Positions 406 to 59,518 of a stretch of DNA of 64,000 nucleotides are shown piece after piece; position 1 is the first letter of the stretch; every line of letters begins with the position of its first letter. A program made the position numbers and the translations under genes. The DNA is from Fimbriimonadia bacterium (GTDB lineage Bacteria > Armatimonadota > Fimbriimonadia > Fimbriimonadales > JABRVX01): the NCBI GenBank assembly GCA_041483895.1, contig JBGPGO010000004.1, forward strand, positions 33,987-97,986, given 5' to 3'. A model generated the notes under the pieces. That model was not told the origin of the DNA. It worked only from the letters and a program-made list of their open reading frames with translations, and ran no database searches.

Positions 406-495
406 GATGCGGCCGGTCTCCTGACCGAGCCGCAGTCCAGGAACGGTCAGGAGACCTGGAAGCGAGCGCGACTCGGTCAGGAGACCGGTCGCATC
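406..495. mobile_element. MITE-like element with 28-nt terminal inverted repeats (family A: GATGCGRCCGGTCTCCTGACCGAGYCGC)
   Basis: The left arm (406-433) and right arm (468-495) are reverse complements with 2 mismatches. The element is flanked by the 17-nt direct repeat CCCTCAACGA(G/A)TCCTAA at 384-400 and 501-517. The same arm recurs at 23055-23122 and 45899-45926. Confidence 0.5.
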
Positions 496-3266: not shown

Positions 3267-3337
3267 GTAGGACCTATAGGACGTATAGGTCGTATAGGTC
3301 CTATAAGTCCTAAAAGTCCGATGAGTCCGATACGTCC
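3267..3337. repeat. 9-bp tandem repeat array (about 8 units, same family as 1826-1890, same orientation)
   Basis: The sequence reads gtaggacct ataggacgt ataggtcgt ataggtcct ataagtcct aaaagtccg atgagtccg atacgtcc. It shares the string ggtcgtataggtcctataagtcct with the first array. Confidence 0.85.
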
Positions 3338-4896: not shown

Positions 4897-4921
4897 ATAG
4901 GACCTATAGGTCCTATAGGTA
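4897..4921. repeat. 9-bp tandem repeat array (3 units, same family)
   Basis: ataggacct ataggtcct ataggta, in the intergenic region between the accA 3' end and the 4123..4821 gene start. Confidence 0.75.
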
Positions 4922-5037
4922 TTTGCCGCGTTAATCGCGTTGGACGGACCAGGATCGTTTCGCGAGAGGTTGCCACGCGGGTCTTGGTGGTCGCAAAATG
5001 AACACCTCCGGCAAGACGACCCGCGCCTACTATCGCC

Positions 5038-10511: not shown

Positions 10512-10515
10512 AATC

Positions 10516-10668
10516 CCCCGTAACGCTGCCTTCCAGGCGGCATTGACTTCTTTTGTGCCGGCAAGATGCCAGCGCTCCCGTAACGCTGCCTTCCAGGCGG
10601 CATTGACCTTTTGTGCCGGCAAGATGCCAGCGTTACGGGAAGCCGCCTGGAAGGCAGCGTTACGGGGG
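10516..10668. repeat. REP-like hairpin repeat cluster (family B: CGTAACGCTGCCTTCCAGGCGGC plus GTGCCGGCAAGATGCCAGCG)
   Basis: Two direct copies of a ~59-bp unit are followed by an inverted copy (GCCGCCTGGAAGGCAGCGTTACGG). The family recurs at 47788-47950 and 59495-59518. Confidence 0.85.
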
Positions 10669-10682
10669 AGATACAATGGGGC

Positions 10683-17332: not shown

Positions 17333-17500
17333 TGTAATCCCTCAACAATCACATTGTTGAGGGGACTCTGGCTCTTCCTTAGCGGATGTTACCAGGAAAC
17401 CGTCAACCTCGCTCGCGGCGGAGTTTTTCAGGTCACAGCCGCATCCGGGGCGGCGTGAACAGCAATAGCCCCTCAACAATGTGATTGTTGAGGGATTACA
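17333..17500. repeat. 168-bp element with perfect 32-nt terminal inverted repeats, each arm itself a palindrome (family C: CCCTCAACAAT-nnn-ATTGTTGAGGG)
   Basis: tgtaatccctcaacaatcacattgttgagggg at 17333-17364 is the exact reverse complement of 17469-17500. A third copy of the palindrome lies at 24429-24453 inside a GT9 gene. Confidence 0.8.
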
Positions 17501-22630: not shown

Positions 22631-23834
22631 CTCGGTAGACTGCCTCCACTCCCTCCGCCATCTTTGCCGTCGAGAAGCGGGCGCGGGTGTCGAGCAGCGC
22701 GGCGGCGCCGAGACGTTTGCGGCGGTCTGGATCGTGGGCGAGAAGGGTGAGGGTCGAGGCGAGGGCGGGCACGTCGTCGCGGGGGATTAGTATTCCGGTT
22801 TCACCGTCTTTCACCATCTCCGGGATTCCGCCGACGCGGGAGGCGACGACGGGCAGACCCAGCATCATTGGTTCGAGCAGCGCGGACGGAAACGGCTCGG
22901 GCCACAGACTCGGTGCGGCGACGATATCCATGGCCAGCATGTAGCTCTCGACATCCTCCACGTACCCGGTGAAGATGACGCGATCGGAATTGACCCCCAC
23001 CCAACCCTCCCCCTTTTCCAGGCTGGCGCCTGGAAAAGGGGGAGGGCTTTCTTCGATGCGACCGGTCTCCTGACCGAGTCGCCCGCGCTCCCTTGCGACT
23101 CGGTCAGGAGACCGGTCGCATCGAGCGCGGGCGAACAGTTTGAGATCGTCCAGGTCCTCGCCCGCTCCCACGATAACCGCAACGACTTGGGAAGGCAAGA
23201 ATTCCAGGGCTTGGAGGAGCAGCCGGTGGCCTTTCTCTTTGATCACCCGCGAGAACATGCCGACGGCGATCTGGTCCTCGCGGAGCCCCAACTCGTTGCG
23301 GACAGCTTCCCGTGACCGCTGGGGGGTTCCCAATTCCACCCCGTTCAGCACCGTCACCACTTTCTCCGGCGCGATGCCGCCTTCCAACAGCGGCTGCCGA
23401 ACGGCCTCGGCCACCGCGATGATCCGGTCGTAGAGCCAGTCGCCGTACATCTTGCGCTTCCAGCCCTTCCAGGACCAGGCCATGTGGCGGGTCATAATGA
23501 CGGCCGGGACCTTGCACAGCCGAGCGGCGACGGCGGGGACGATGAAATCGACGGAGTAATGAGTATGGACAACGTCGTACTTTTCGCGCCGGAGCAGGCG
23601 AATGTAAGGGATGAGCGCGCGCCAATCCTGCTGGCTGCGCACGCTGATCTGTGGGCAATGGAATCCCAGGGGCTTGGCATGGCGGCGGACGTAGGTATCC
23701 GGGCCACAAGTGAGGTGGATTTCATGGCCGCGATCTCGAAGGGCTTTCATCAGGCCGATGATCCACCGATCGATGCCGCCCCACTCAAACAGGGCGCTTC
23801 CCACCTGCAGGACCTTGAGCGGCTGGTGTATCAT
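22602..23834 (-). CDS. GT4 family glycosyltransferase (RfaG-like) carrying an in-frame repeat insertion
   Basis: GT-B fold signatures (GGIDRW, DVVHTH, EPFPSALLEPMMLGLPVVASRVGGIPE). A ~42-aa insert is encoded by two palindromic repeats. Confidence 0.85.
   Translation of the reverse strand: MIHQPLKVLQVGSALFEWGGIDRWIIGLMKALRDRGHEIHLTCGPDTYVRRHAKPLGFHCPQISVRSQQDWRALIPYIRLLRREKYDVVHTHYSVDFIVPAVAARLCKVPAVIMTRHMAWSWKGWKRKMYGDWLYDRIIAVAEAVRQPLLEGGIAPEKVVTVLNGVELGTPQRSREAVRNELGLREDQIAVGMFSRVIKEKGHRLLLQALEFLPSQVVAVIVGAGEDLDDLKLFARARCDRSPDRVARERGRLGQETGRIEESPPPFPGASLEKGEGWVGVNSDRVIFTGYVEDVESYMLAMDIVAAPSLWPEPFPSALLEPMMLGLPVVASRVGGIPEMVKDGETGILIPRDDVPALASTLTLLAHDPDRRKRLGAAALLDTRARFSTAKMAEGVEAVYRATLARKVRN
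23005..23046. repeat. perfect 18-bp-stem hairpin repeat (family D: CCCTCCCCCTTTTCCAGG)
   Basis: CCCTCCCCCTTTTCCAGG ctggcg CCTGGAAAAGGGGGAGGG, inside the GT4 CDS. A related copy lies at 24390-24414. Confidence 0.85.
23055..23122. repeat. family A element, compact copy (28-bp perfect stem, 12-nt loop)
   Basis: GATGCGACCGGTCTCCTGACCGAGTCGC followed by its exact reverse complement, inside the GT4 CDS. Confidence 0.85.
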
Positions 23835-23851: not shown

Positions 23852-24982
23852 ATGACCGAACGAATTCTTGTGATGATGCGGGAGCATATCGGGGATGTGG
23901 TGAATTCCATCCCCGCGCTTCGCTGCATCCGGCGTCACCATCCTTCGGCGCTCATCACGGTGGAGGTGGGGGATCGGGCGGCGGGGCTTCTGCGGAACTG
24001 CCCGTATTTGGACGAGTTGTGGCCGCGTCCAGAGCATCAGGGATTATTGCGGAAAGTGGCGCTGATTGGGAAGATGCGGCTGCGCCGGTTTCGGGCGGTC
24101 TATATTTTGGATGACAGCAACGCGATGATTCTGTACTGTTGGCTGGGCGGGTTGCGCGAGCGATATGGGATTGTGAAGACCAAATACGAGCGGTTGTTCA
24201 CCCAGTGCATTTGGTTCGATCCGTCGGTGCATGAGACGCTTGGGAATTTTCGTCAGTTGTTGGACCAGGTTGGGGTGGATACTGCGGATTGGCATCTGGA
24301 GCTTTTTGATCGTGCCGGGCCCTTTGGGGACGGCGATCGGGAGGATATGGCAGGCGAGAACCCCGGCACATCCATCCCCCCCACCCTAACCCTCCCCCCC
24401 AAAGGGGAGGAGGGAATCAGAGTTCCATCCCCCAACAATCATATTGTTGAGGGTGATGGGGCCTTGGTCGCGATCAACCCAGGGGCCAGCATCGAGCAAA
24501 AGCGGTGGTTCCCAGAGCGATTTGCTGAGGTCGCTGACAGGGTGCAAGAGGAGTTGGGCGCGACGGTCTGCATTTTGGGCGGGCCGGGAGAGGTGGCGTT
24601 GGCCGAGGAGATTCGGTCCACGATGCGGACGGAACCGATGATGCTGACCGGCAAGCTGTCGTTGGACGAGCTGATCGCGGTGTTGGAGAGATGCGACGCT
24701 TTGGTCACGTGCGACAGCGGTCCAAAGCACATAGCCGCGGCGGTCGGCACGTCCGTCGTGGGAATTTTCGGCTACTTCGATCCGGCCATCGTTGGCCCCG
24801 CCGGCGAGGGGCACATCCTATTAAGAAAGGTCGCCGGCTGTCCCGATTGCCGGCATTCGGACTGCGCGCACGATCGCTCTTGTCTCCGCCTGATTGAGGC
24901 GGACGATGTTGTCCAGGCGGTGGCCACAATCCTGGAAAGGTCAGGCGCGCATGCGATCCGTCCTCATCGTTCGGCAGGATAA
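23852..24982 (+). CDS. GT9 family glycosyltransferase (heptosyltransferase-like) carrying an in-frame repeat insertion
   Basis: ILVMMREHIGDVVNSIPALR start, KRWFPERFAEV and the CDSGPKHIAAAVGT motif. An insert (PPTLTLPPKGEEGIRVPSPNNHIVEG) is encoded by family D and C palindromes. Confidence 0.8.
   Translation: MTERILVMMREHIGDVVNSIPALRCIRRHHPSALITVEVGDRAAGLLRNCPYLDELWPRPEHQGLLRKVALIGKMRLRRFRAVYILDDSNAMILYCWLGGLRERYGIVKTKYERLFTQCIWFDPSVHETLGNFRQLLDQVGVDTADWHLELFDRAGPFGDGDREDMAGENPGTSIPPTLTLPPKGEEGIRVPSPNNHIVEGDGALVAINPGASIEQKRWFPERFAEVADRVQEELGATVCILGGPGEVALAEEIRSTMRTEPMMLTGKLSLDELIAVLERCDALVTCDSGPKHIAAAVGTSVVGIFGYFDPAIVGPAGEGHILLRKVAGCPDCRHSDCAHDRSCLRLIEADDVVQAVATILERSGAHAIRPHRSAG
24390..24453. 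repeat. family D hairpin (24390-24414) plus family C palindrome (24429-24453) inside the GT9 CDS
   Basis: ccctccccccc aaa ggggaggaggg, and cccccaacaat cat attgttgaggg. Confidence 0.8.
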
Positions 24983-45792: not shown

Positions 45793-45855
45793 TCGTAGTT
45801 TACACCACGGCAGGAAAAACAGTGTGCTGGGACAATGGCGGGAACTGCGCGCCTA

Positions 45856-46028
45856 GAAACCAAGCCCATGAAACGTGTTCCCGCAATCCTCCTCCTCCGA
45901 TGCGACCGGTCTCCCGACCGAGTCGCAGGTCTTCCACAGGTCTCCCGACCGATCCCGGACAGGAAATGCCAACAATGCCTCGAAACCATCCCCATGAAAC
46001 GTGTTCTCGCCATCCTCCTCATCCTCCT
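45856..46028. repeat. family A element (rearranged) flanked by a ~43-bp duplication of the S15 peptidase start region
   Basis: gaaaccaagcccATGAAACGTGTTCCCGCAATCCTCCTCCTCC (45856-45898), then GATGCGACCGGTCTCCCGACCGAGTCGC..., then gaaaccatccccATGAAACGTGTTCTCGCCATCCTCCTCATCCTCC (from 45982). Confidence 0.8.
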
Positions 46029-47793
46029 CGCCTGCCTGACCCAAGCCCAGGTCAACGGCGACAACTACACCAAGCAGCTCATCATGATCCCCATGCGCGA
46101 CGGCGTCAAGCTGGCCACCGTCGTCTATGTCCCAAAAGACACCAGCGAAAAACACCCGATCCTGATGGAGCGCACCCCCTACGGCGCCGGACCCTATGAC
46201 ACCGGCTTCCGCAACCCATACGGCTCGCGGAAGTTCAGCGACAATCACTACATCTTCGCCTACCAGGACGTGCGCGGCAAGGGCCGATCGGAAGGCGAGT
46301 TCGAGAATATCCGCCCCATCCGAACCAAGTACAACGGCCCGAAGGACACCGACGAGAGCACAGATACCTACGACATGGTCGAATACTTGGTCAAAAACAT
46401 CCCCAACAACAACGGGCGCGTCGGCGTGCGCGGCATCTCCTATCCGGGCTTCTACGCCGGCGCCGCCGCGATAAACACGCATCCCGCGCTCAAGGCCGCC
46501 TCGCCCCAGGCGCCCGTCTCCAACTGGTGGATTGGCGACGATTTTCACCACAATGGCGTGCTGTTCCTCATGGACGGGTTCAACTTCCTATCCGGTTTTG
46601 GCCGCCCGCCCAACCCGACCGTCCAGATGCCCTCGATCGACCGCGGCAGCGACGCGTATCAGTTCTTCCTCGATCTCGGCCCGCTGGCAAACGCCAATGA
46701 CAAATATCTGAAGAACCAGATCGCCTTTTGGAACGACATGGCGGCGCACGAGAGCTACGACGACTTTTGGAGGGCCCGCGCGCTCACCGATCACGCAAAG
46801 AACGTCCACTGCGCCGTGATGACCGTCGGCGGCTGGTTCGACGCCGAGGACCTCTGGGGCGCGCTCAACCTCTACAAGCATATCGAAAAGCAGAACAAGG
46901 GGATCCACAACACACTGGTGATGGGACCATGGCCGCACGGAGGATGGGCCGGCCGACCCGGAGACAAATTCGGCGACATTCCGTTCGGCATGCCAGCCTC
47001 CACATATTATCAGGAGAACATCGAATGGCCGTTCTTCGACGCCTACCTGCGCGGCGACGGCAACCCGAGCACGCAGGAGGCACAGGTGTTCGAGACCGGC
47101 GCGAACCAATGGCACACCTTCGACAAGTGGCCGCCAAAGGGGACGAAGGAGCAGTCGTTCTATCTCAGCGCCGGCAAAACGATCTCAACCAAGCAGGCAG
47201 GTAGCGGCCAGGATGAATATGTGAGCGACCCCGCCAATCCGGTTCCCTATGTTGGAAAGACGGGCCGGAATCGGAACAGCACATATATGGACGGCGACCA
47301 GCGCTTTGCCGAAAAAAGGGCGGACGTGTTGACCTTTAAGACCGAGCCGATGACGGAAGATCTAACCATCGTTGGACCGGTCTGGGCGGACCTTTTCGTG
47401 ACCTCAACGAGCACGGACGCTGATTTCGTGGTCAAAGTCATCGACGTATTCCCAGACGATGCGTCGGATAACCTTGGTGGCTATGAGATGCTGGTGCGCG
47501 GCGAAATCATGCGGGCCAAGTTCCGGAATAATCCGACAAAGCCCTCGCCGCTGACTCCCGGCAAAATAGAAAAGGTCTCGTACGCGCTGCCGGACGTGTT
47601 CCACACCTTTAAGAAGGGTCACCGGATGATGGTGCAGGTTCAGAGCAGCTGGTTCCCGCTCGGGGATCGGAATCCGCAGAAGTTCATGGACATTTGGAAG
47701 GCCAAGGCGGAGGACTTTACGAAAGCTACGATTCAATTGCACCACTCATCAAAGTCGGCTTCCCGCATCCGCGTCGGCGTCCTCCACCCGTAA
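45994..47793 (+). CDS. CocE/NonD family hydrolase (S15 X-Pro dipeptidyl-peptidase-like)
   Basis: Signal peptide MKRVLAILLILLACLTQA, MRDGVKL, YQDVRGKGRSEG and a C-terminal beta-sandwich domain. Start placed at the second duplicated ATG. Confidence 0.85.
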   Translation: MKRVLAILLILLACLTQAQVNGDNYTKQLIMIPMRDGVKLATVVYVPKDTSEKHPILMERTPYGAGPYDTGFRNPYGSRKFSDNHYIFAYQDVRGKGRSEGEFENIRPIRTKYNGPKDTDESTDTYDMVEYLVKNIPNNNGRVGVRGISYPGFYAGAAAINTHPALKAASPQAPVSNWWIGDDFHHNGVLFLMDGFNFLSGFGRPPNPTVQMPSIDRGSDAYQFFLDLGPLANANDKYLKNQIAFWNDMAAHESYDDFWRARALTDHAKNVHCAVMTVGGWFDAEDLWGALNLYKHIEKQNKGIHNTLVMGPWPHGGWAGRPGDKFGDIPFGMPASTYYQENIEWPFFDAYLRGDGNPSTQEAQVFETGANQWHTFDKWPPKGTKEQSFYLSAGKTISTKQAGSGQDEYVSDPANPVPYVGKTGRNRNSTYMDGDQRFAEKRADVLTFKTEPMTEDLTIVGPVWADLFVTSTSTDADFVVKVIDVFPDDASDNLGGYEMLVRGEIMRAKFRNNPTKPSPLTPGKIEKVSYALPDVFHTFKKGHRMMVQVQSSWFPLGDRNPQKFMDIWKAKAEDFTKATIQLHHSSKSASRIRVGVLHP

Positions 47794-47950
47794 CGCTGCC
47801 TTCCAGGCGGCAAAGATGAATTTGTAACGCTGGCATCCTGCCGGCTCAAATTTCCCGTAGCGCTGCCTTCCAGGCGGCAAAAACGATCGTGCCGGCATCC
47901 TGACGGCTCTCCCCAAAGGTCGCAATGCCACCTAGAAGGCAGCGTTACAA
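47788..47950. repeat. REP-like hairpin repeat cluster (family B, four to five hairpin units in both orientations)
   Basis: CCGTAACGCTGCCTTCCAGGCGGCA, GTAACGCTGGCATCCTGCCGGC, CGTAGCGCTGCCTTCCAGGCGGCA, GTGCCGGCATCCTGACGGC and an inverted ...GAAGGCAGCGTTAC. The TAA stop of the S15 gene lies within the first unit. Confidence 0.85.
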
Positions 47951-48153
47951 GACGGACATTGACGTAAAAAAAAGGAAGGCAGAATAGCTTCGGCCCTCCT
48001 AAGGCATACGCCCCAACCTGGATGGTAAATAGATCATATCGTATATTGACGGTTCTGTCAAGCGGAATCTGAAGAAAAGCTCGAACTTTTTCGAATGTGA
48101 CGCCGTTACTGACCACTTGAGGTTCTGCCCGCTCGGTGGCCTGCAATCATATT

Positions 48154-59427: not shown

Positions 59428-59494
59428 GCCAAACGTCCTATGCTCGGCGGGGCCAAATCCGTCTCAGTGATGCCCCAGTGAGTAACGGACGCAA

Positions 59495-59518
59495 TGCCGC
59501 CTGGAAGGCAGCGTTACG
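59495..59518. repeat. single family B REP-like hairpin
   Basis: TGCCGCCTGGAAGGCAGCGTTACG in the intergenic region upstream of the TolC gene. Confidence 0.8.

Follow-up and report, generated by a model that had tools for sequence, protein, structure and literature searches.

How do two long and perfect palindromes come to lie inside an uninterrupted coding frame, where they are translated as part of an enzyme? The question is raised by the gene of a GT4 glycosyltransferase in a 64,000-nt stretch of contig JBGPGO010000004.1 from a Fimbriimonadia bacterium (this whole analysed stretch is called the window below), in which two hairpins, here hairpin 1 and hairpin 2, are both contained in a single minus-strand open reading frame (ORF) of 410 aa. 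Hairpin 2 belongs to a repeat family that we call family A and that resembles repetitive extragenic palindromic (REP) units, and hairpin 1 resembles the published BoxC/PIT/TMECO motif, a triplex-type motif (TM) of three blocks. We propose, with a probability of about 0.8, that the block which holds them is made up of two unrelated hairpin repeats, that both got into the coding sequence with the translated frame kept, and that these repeats are selfish or neutral. The positions of all features are collected in Table 1.

Table 1. Host genes, hairpins and related repeats of the window, with their positions
Feature	Position	Strand	Description
GT4 (GT-B fold) glycosyltransferase gene, 410 aa	22602-23834	-	Host of the insert; assigned by ORF, Pfam, AlphaFold2 and Foldseek
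BoxC/PIT/TMECO-like motif	22994-23046	-	CCCTCCCCC - 24-nt loop - GGGGGAGGG - TT - GGGTGGGGG (coding strand); translated SPPPFPGASLEKGEGWVG
Hairpin 1	23005-23046		Arms 23005-23023/23028-23046, perfect 19-bp stem (100% complementary), 4-nt loop; 9-bp TM stem plus 24-nt perfect palindrome TTTTCCAGGC TGGC GCCTGGAAAA filling the first TM loop
Hairpin 2, REPIN-like inverted doublet	23053-23124		Arms 23053-23082/23095-23124, perfect 30-bp stem (100% complementary), 12-nt loop; translated RCDRSPDRVARERGRLGQETGRI
Family-A unit GCGACCGGTCTCCTGACCGAGTCGC	23058-23082	+	Own 10-bp hairpin with one bulged A and TCCT loop
Family-A unit, inverted	23095-23119	-	Within the right arm of hairpin 2
Native GT4 flank GAGCGCGGGCGA	23123-23134		Codons F-A-R-A; conserved in homologues
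GT9 (heptosyltransferase-like) gene, 376 aa	23852-24982	+	Pfam PF01075
Second TMECO-like motif CCCTCCTCC-CCTTTGG-GGGGGAGGG-TTA-GGGTGGGGG	24378-24414	-	Antisense to GT9; translated PPTLTLPPKGEEG
Family-C hairpin CCCCCAACAATCATATTGTTGAGGG	24429-24453		Inside GT9; 2 mismatches to the copy at 17339-17363, which belongs to the terminal repeats of the MITE-like element
Extragenic family-A doublet	406-495		Arms 406-433/468-495, 28 nt, 93% complementary, 34-nt spacer
Family-A unit (45899-45926) plus partial direct copy	45899-45950	+	Between two peptidase S15 gene starts
MITE-like element, 168 bp	17333-17500		32-bp perfect terminal inverted repeats, each with hairpin CCCTCAACAATCACATTGTTGAGGG

Two perfect hairpins in a lineage-specific insert

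Perfect hairpins are not a chance feature of this composition. In a census that required a perfect stem of at least 11 bp and a loop of 3-40 nt, 15 were counted in the window and 0-1 in each of 20 shuffles, and hairpins 1 and 2 were the longest of the 15. The mRNA segment that carries them had a folding energy of -126.3 kcal/mol (z = -13.5), a value that none of 200 shuffles equalled. The lengths that make up the block in GT4 (42, 6 and 72 nt) all keep the frame, and no in-frame stop is introduced. Moreover, the end of the left arm of hairpin 2 together with 8 nt of its loop (23079-23090) is a perfect 12-nt reverse complement of the native GT4 flank listed in Table 1. The loop thus seems to hold an inverted copy of the target, and no model fitted this match.

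The host was identified by homology and by predicted structure. Pfam families PF13439 (Glyco_transf_4, 80.9 bits) and PF00534 (Glycos_transf_1, 115.3 bits) were matched above their gathering scores, and the AlphaFold2 model, with a mean predicted local distance difference test score (pLDDT) of 90.9, has the two-Rossmann-domain fold of solved GT4 enzymes, the best Foldseek matches being HepE, BshA, MshA, PimB' and WaaG (E from 1e-23 to 1e-15). In an alignment of 12 sequences (A1, the GT4 protein and its 11 closest homologues), 33 of the 33 invariant columns were kept. The closest homologues, P0002, P0003 and P0004 (361, 358 and 365 aa; 50-64% identity), align on either side of the block and do without its 42 residues, and in the DNA alignment with them the gap falls on the hairpins. 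Over a wider set of 81 homologues, 0-9 residues (mostly 3) occupy the position at which this protein has 44. Only residues 255-282 of the model fall below a pLDDT of 50, between the helix at 243-252 and the strand at 286-290 (VIFTG). In the model, the block sits in a helix-to-strand linker of the C-terminal Rossmann domain, at the N-terminal edge of the sheet, and is predicted to form a disordered surface loop; judging from Rossmann-fold topology it would lie on the face opposite the nucleotide-sugar site.

The peptide encoded by the block was also searched against protein collections. For the 45-aa insert peptide, a word-index protein search returned no candidates, and an exhaustive phmmer search of 1.84 billion representatives returned one chance match, in a repeat-rich protein of 3376 aa. 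A conserved peptide module was rejected on these grounds. Hence, the block is defined by its nucleotide palindromy and not by its peptide.

These results agree with most of what an earlier sequence-only reading of the window had put forward. It had placed stems of 18 and 28 bp inside GT4, which proved slightly longer (19 and 30 bp), and its translation of the uninterrupted ORF was an exact match. Its expectation that a block of about 42 aa would be lineage-specific was borne out by the orthologue alignment; its position for the insert, a linker before the VIFTG strand, is the one given by both alignment and AlphaFold2; and the surface loop that it had proposed to look for fits a model that is confident everywhere except in the block.

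A dispersed REP-like unit and a three-block motif

In hairpin 2 (72 nt), a REP-like unit of 25-28 nt is present as an inverted doublet, i.e. the hairpin has the architecture of REPINs, the paired form of REPs. In the window, family A comprises 5 full units at 3 loci. The units are short (20-40 nt) imperfect palindromes in several dispersed copies, and inverted doublets occur both at 406-495 and at 23053-23124, as in REPs and REPINs, although the GT4 copy departs from the extragenic location of these elements by lying inside an ORF. The doublet at 406-495 follows directly on the stop codon with which a pterin-binding-enzyme gene ends. On its two sides, within 371-520, stands an imperfect direct duplication of 17 nt, CCCTCAACGA(G/A)TCCTAA, which takes in the stop codon of that upstream gene and exceeds the usual length of a target-site duplication. 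The arms in GT4 are identical to its copy at 468-495.

At the third locus, which spans 45835-46010, the family-A copy at 45899-45926 probably lies in a 5' leader. The peptidase S15 start ATGAAACGTGTT is found twice here, at 45868 and 45994, with the two ATGs 126 nt apart and in frame, and an imperfect duplication of about 48 nt, which takes in the ribosome-binding site and the ATG, surrounds the 45899 site. Probably the second ATG, with a signal peptide after it, is the true start of the peptidase, and the frame upstream of this ATG reads RCDRSPDRVA, as in GT4.

Family A also extends well beyond this genome. With an exact search for the 25-mer in which R/Y was permitted at three positions, 23 stretches were found in species-representative genomes, from several metagenome-assembled genomes (MAGs) of Planctomycetota, from Caldilineales, Anaerolineales and other Chloroflexota, and from one Rhodospirillales MAG; many of these genomes come from wastewater-type samples. 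Over the units of the window and of these 23 loci, 38 of 39 units show covariation of positions 4 and 22 (A-T or G-C), which makes the stem the conserved feature of the family. The sequence (T/C)C-GAT stands ahead of the units, and both tags of the REP super-families, GTAG and CGTC, are absent. Two of the distant copies lie in coding frames and are probably further in-frame insertions: one, in a Planctomycetaceae genome, falls within the Pfam match of a 1279-aa DUF2339 membrane-protein ORF (L019, 2217-2241), and the other, from Anaerolineales, within a 974-aa frame with an LTD domain (L021, 102-126).

In the Caldilineales MAG CALESQ01 (L005 686-1404, L022 5367-5597, L006 and L023) the 25-mer is part of tandem mosaic arrays, with periods of about 69 nt in L022 and about 100 nt in L005 and with other modules that include GATTGGGAACC...GGTTCCCAATC. 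A CRISPR array was considered for these regularly spaced copies and rejected, since the "spacers" are themselves repeated. The unit of the Rhodospirillales MAG (L016, 2840-2864) is in an open frame of 277 aa with a TMECO-like motif 1.5 kb away; ORFs of this locus match phage portal and prohead-protease families, and the region may be a prophage. Carriage of family A by phages was rejected, as IMG/VR gave 0 matches to the family.

Hairpin 1 is of a different kind. The BoxC/PIT/TMECO consensus is CCCTCNCCC N3-6 GGGNGAGGG N3 GGGNGAGGG with at most one mismatched pair, and for the motif of E. coli the formation of an intrastrand triplex has been demonstrated in vitro (PMC4666352). A relaxed form of this pattern matched the window exactly twice, once in GT4 and once in the adjacent GT9 gene, and none of 50 shuffles. 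As judged from their sequences, both copies appear to have the three-block architecture and to depart from the strict consensus: in the GT4 copy the first loop is 24 nt long, the second is TT and block 3 has one mismatch, and the GT9 copy has loops of 7 nt (3 nt if the stem is extended) and TTA with one mismatch each in blocks 1 and 3. Together with its G-rich tail (22994-23046), hairpin 1 would thus be a member or close variant of the published family, its first loop expanded by a palindrome. On the coding (minus) strand, the G-blocks of this motif (23029-23046) contain GGAGG with an in-frame GTG five bases on, a Shine-Dalgarno-like arrangement that is possibly meaningless.

The motif is also present in viral sequences. 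Its tail-plus-stem 19-mer CCCACCCWAACCCTCCCCC gave 39 matches in 35 IMG/VR contigs (L125-L159), 27 of them with the stem partner a few bases off, and the loops vary between these copies; in one contig (L147), four copies are placed inside a longer conserved repeat. For the E. coli motif, Holder et al. found no phage association; the motif was reported from 262 proteobacterial genomes and is always intergenic in E. coli K-12 (PMC4666352). A general association between TM motifs and family A was rejected, as only 2 TM-like motifs occur in 203 kb of family-A loci and neither adjoins a family-A unit. A dispersed family formed by hairpin 1 as a whole was rejected as well: no second copy of its stem was found in the window with up to 3 mismatches allowed, and its inner 18-mer had 97 single matches in a metagenome collection, in unrelated contexts and with the partner arm in 0 of 97, which is consistent with chance.

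The sequence-only reading had expected both families to recur between genes elsewhere in the window and had known of no description for either. The first part stood for hairpin 2 (406-433/468-495 and 45899-45926) and failed for hairpin 1, whose sole relative in the window is the motif in the GT9 ORF. Likewise, for hairpin 2 no description was found, its core string occurring in the literature only within unrelated primers, while hairpin 1 appears to fit BoxC/PIT/TMECO (PMC4666352).

The GT9 gene next to GT4 provides a second case. Its block counts 38 residues, against 5-8 in 11 homologues, and about 30 aa of it, in frame and especially at 24371-24456, consist of a TM motif and a family-C hairpin. 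AlphaFold2 gave a pLDDT below 50 to residues 156-200, which immediately precede the C-terminal domain's first strand, and the block is predicted to be disordered. The block is stop-free in one of six frames, which is the frame in use. GT9 would have undergone the same kind of insertion as GT4, at an inter-domain linker.

A proposed insertion of repeats and its alternatives

In the explanation that we favour, about 126-131 nt of GT4 (about 22994-23124) would be an inserted repeat composite. One part would be the inverted family-A doublet, with extragenic copies in this genome as well as in those of Planctomycetota and Chloroflexota, and the other a BoxC/PIT/TMECO three-block motif with its first loop expanded to a 24-nt perfect palindrome. 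The insert would add about 42 residues as a predicted disordered loop and leave the rest of the enzyme intact. The repeats themselves would have no role in the protein, and only those copies would survive that keep the frame, carry no stops and land in permissive loops. A hairpin-recognising single-strand transposase (HUH- or RAYT-like, i.e. of the type of the REP-associated tyrosine transposases) may mobilise the REP-like unit, and both the perfect arms and the inner palindrome found only here may have arisen by local template switching. The mRNA may also be affected, as a perfect RNA duplex of 30 bp would be long enough for an RNase III-type substrate. That repeats invaded the coding region without breaking the frame, as the sequence-only reading had it, agrees with a gene that is otherwise intact.

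That the GT4 arms equal the copy at 468-495 and both translated stems are perfect points either to a recent event or to ongoing intrastrand correction. Moreover, the unique palindrome in the TM loop, the 12-nt inverted match and the 17- and ~48-nt duplications at other sites together argue for a contribution of template switching or repair, as against a clean cut-and-paste event.

Several results weigh against this explanation. No transposase, including Y1/HUH types, was detected among the 23 window ORFs scanned, and a crude motif screen for Y1/HUH transposases found none. In a survey of 69 ORFs around family-A copies in the 23 other loci, no recurrent transposase family was seen among the best 25 of 60 Pfam families. 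Linkage to a transposase thus found no support, as neither the 23 window ORFs nor the listed neighbour families hold a Y1/HUH enzyme; a RAYT present in one copy would, however, fall in a 64-kb sample with a chance of only about 1%. At the GT4 site, no target-site duplication can be recognised. The inner palindrome of hairpin 1 is found only at this locus and is not a dispersed repeat. The nearest GT4 homologues are only 61-64% identical and non-syntenic, so that no empty site from a close relative is at hand and the insert boundaries are approximate. Finally, the locus comes from a single assembly, and the identical protein occurs on one contig only.

Some of these points would be explained if the block arose mostly in situ at a triplex motif prone to stalling, through template switching or correction of a quasi-palindrome, without transposition of a ready-made element. 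We regard this as a serious but minority possibility. It would account for an inner palindrome that is present nowhere else in the data searched, for stems that are 100% perfect although they are translated, for the inverted 8-nt copy of the native flank in the loop of hairpin 2, and for duplications at other family-A sites that are too long for an ordinary transposase; TM motifs have also been tied to local rearrangement and polymerase stops (PMC4666352). On the other hand, the family-A unit and the TM blocks belong to dispersed families that are conserved in other genomes, which argues that sequence was imported, and no simple fold-back model gives the observed order of flank, arms and loop.

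A related proposal is more speculative, and we hold it to be improbable: TM motifs inside genes would stall replication and attract or generate adjacent hairpins (family A in GT4, family C in GT9 and the unique palindrome), as a recurrent route by which disordered loops of enzymes grow through phylum-crossing repeats. Polymerase stops linked to the TM could explain why a second repeat family stands 6-14 nt from the motif in both genes. The family-A loci elsewhere show no TM association, which counts against this explanation of the proximity.

The hairpins could instead be a selected cis element, either an antisense terminator or a site of mRNA processing or translation pausing that tunes GT4. 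On the plus strand, CTTTCTTC comes after hairpin 1, which matches a simple pattern for terminators, an 872-aa ORF converges on GT4 and overlaps its end, and the predicted mRNA structure is extremely stable. A scan for terminators, however, gave fewer sites in the window than in shuffles (2 versus 3.1), the T-tract is weak, and PIT/TM elements acted neither as promoters nor as terminators in E. coli (PMC4666352). Rfam gave no match in the window at the gathering threshold, and in E-value mode only generic miRNA-type hairpins far below threshold, on which a known RNA family was rejected. As the closest homologues also do without the block, selection for such an element is unlikely.

It is slightly less likely still that GT4 is a recently inactivated pseudogene whose frame is open only because G+C-rich repeats hold few stops. 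The block is indeed stop-free in 4 of 6 frames, so that an open frame by itself says little, and a disordered insert of 44 residues beside a core beta-strand could impair folding; against this, every invariant column of A1 and the 410-aa frame are preserved, the fold is predicted with high confidence, the GT9 block is open only in the frame that is used, and in both genes the insert sits in a linker. An artefact of assembly or sequencing is very improbable: there is a single source contig and chimeric reads can yield perfect palindromes, but the position of the block is central in a contig of 236 kb, related imperfect copies occur in the window (the 93% doublet at 406-495) and in independent assemblies of other taxa, and a different second block is found in the next gene with the frame kept in both. 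Programmed translational bypassing, in which the ribosome would skip the hairpins as it does with GC-rich hairpin inserts in coding regions of some yeast mitochondria and in T4 gene 60, is the least likely reading, as the block has no in-frame stop and lengths that are multiples of 3 and so requires no hop, and the GCT before hairpin 2 and GAA GAA after it are not matched as take-off and landing codons.

Other repeats of the window and known systems

The proposed insertion of repeats followed by selective survival also bears on the remaining repeats of the window. The MITE-like (miniature inverted-repeat transposable element) sequence of Table 1 sits between two minus-strand genes. A GTAG/GTAA-tagged REP (GTAACGCTGCCTTCCAGGCGGC, with the diverged partner GTAACGCTGGCATCTTGCCGGC) forms clusters in inverted arrangements at 10514-10669, 47790-47948 and 59484-59518; the ORF 47733-48146, which overlaps one of them, is probably spurious. 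Arrays of a 9-nt unit, TAGGNCNTA (variants TAGGACCTA and TAGGTCGTA), make imperfect palindromes at 1826-1881, 3268-3337 and 4898-4924, between genes, and one such array extends over the 5' end predicted for an MFS transporter ORF. All these remaining clusters, GTAG-type REPs and 9-nt arrays alike, are extragenic. Long ORFs cover up to 96% of the window, and an extragenic bias despite this cover is the pattern expected from a selective filter.

In-frame repeat insertions of this type reveal positions at which a protein tolerates extra sequence, and they are one route by which loops are born. For annotators, low-complexity blocks of 40-odd residues (RCDRSPDR..., TLTLPPKGEEG...) are best taken as translated repeats and not as domains, and ORF calls that begin inside such repeats, e.g. 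the peptidase gene at 45835, deserve distrust. The present cases add a lineage beyond those with catalogued intragenic REPs, a perfect RNA duplex of 30 bp predicted for the middle part of an mRNA and, with GT4 and GT9, apparent intragenic examples of BoxC/TM, a motif described before from genomes of proteobacteria and, in E. coli K-12, only from intergenic DNA.

The three-block motifs appear to share with BoxC/PIT/TMECO (Holder et al. 2015, PMC4666352) the conserved blocks themselves, a TTA-type second loop and a variable first loop; the published motif is linked to local genomic instability. They differ from the intergenic E. coli K-12 copies in that both lie inside ORFs in translated frames, in that one of them has a 24-nt first and a 2-nt second loop, and in one or two block mismatches each.

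Family A resembles REPINs (Bertels and Rainey 2011, PMC3116915) in its two inverted REP units with a short spacer, its long hairpin and its non-coding dispersal. REPINs, however, are mobilised by a RAYT, and no RAYT is linked to family A; they are also extragenic by definition, whereas the GT4 copy is intragenic. As described in bioRxiv 10.1101/2022.05.22.493013, REPIN-RAYT systems are for the most part passed on vertically, in contrast to the near identity of family A across phyla. Considered as a MITE, the doublet has arms that could count as terminal inverted repeats, and other family-A sites carry imperfect duplications of 17-48 nt; no insertion sequence partner is known.

The closest precedents are the intragenic REPs (Di Nocera, De Gregorio and Rocco 2013, PMC3733652), short hairpins that occur in functional genes, commonly as inverted dimers, with 20-30 (up to 82) extra residues and sometimes with two inserts per ORF. 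Opitutus terrae (PVC superphylum) and Rickettsia conorii hold the largest numbers of them, and linkers or loops have been proposed as their sites (PMC3733652). Since such dimers and double inserts are already catalogued there, the GT4 case is not a new kind of insertion. The catalogued elements carry GTAG or CGTC tags, whereas family A and the TM motif are untagged, and the window's own GTAG-type family occurs solely outside genes; in addition, two unrelated families are stacked here within 6 nt of each other, with arms that are 100% perfect.

The sequence-only reading had likened the locus to Rickettsia palindromic elements (RPEs), and the likeness is apt: these are in-frame palindromic inserts in unrelated metabolic genes that are compatible with the fold and lie off the functional sites (PMC10969869, PMC3733652). 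RPEs, in turn, are about 100-150 bp long, specific to Rickettsia and conserved in peptide within each family, whereas the insert described here has no protein homologues, and the single chance match from phmmer does not place it in an RPE family. In its behaviour, the GT4 locus thus resembles intragenic REPs and RPEs, and it stands outside both the tagged REP super-families and the RPE families.

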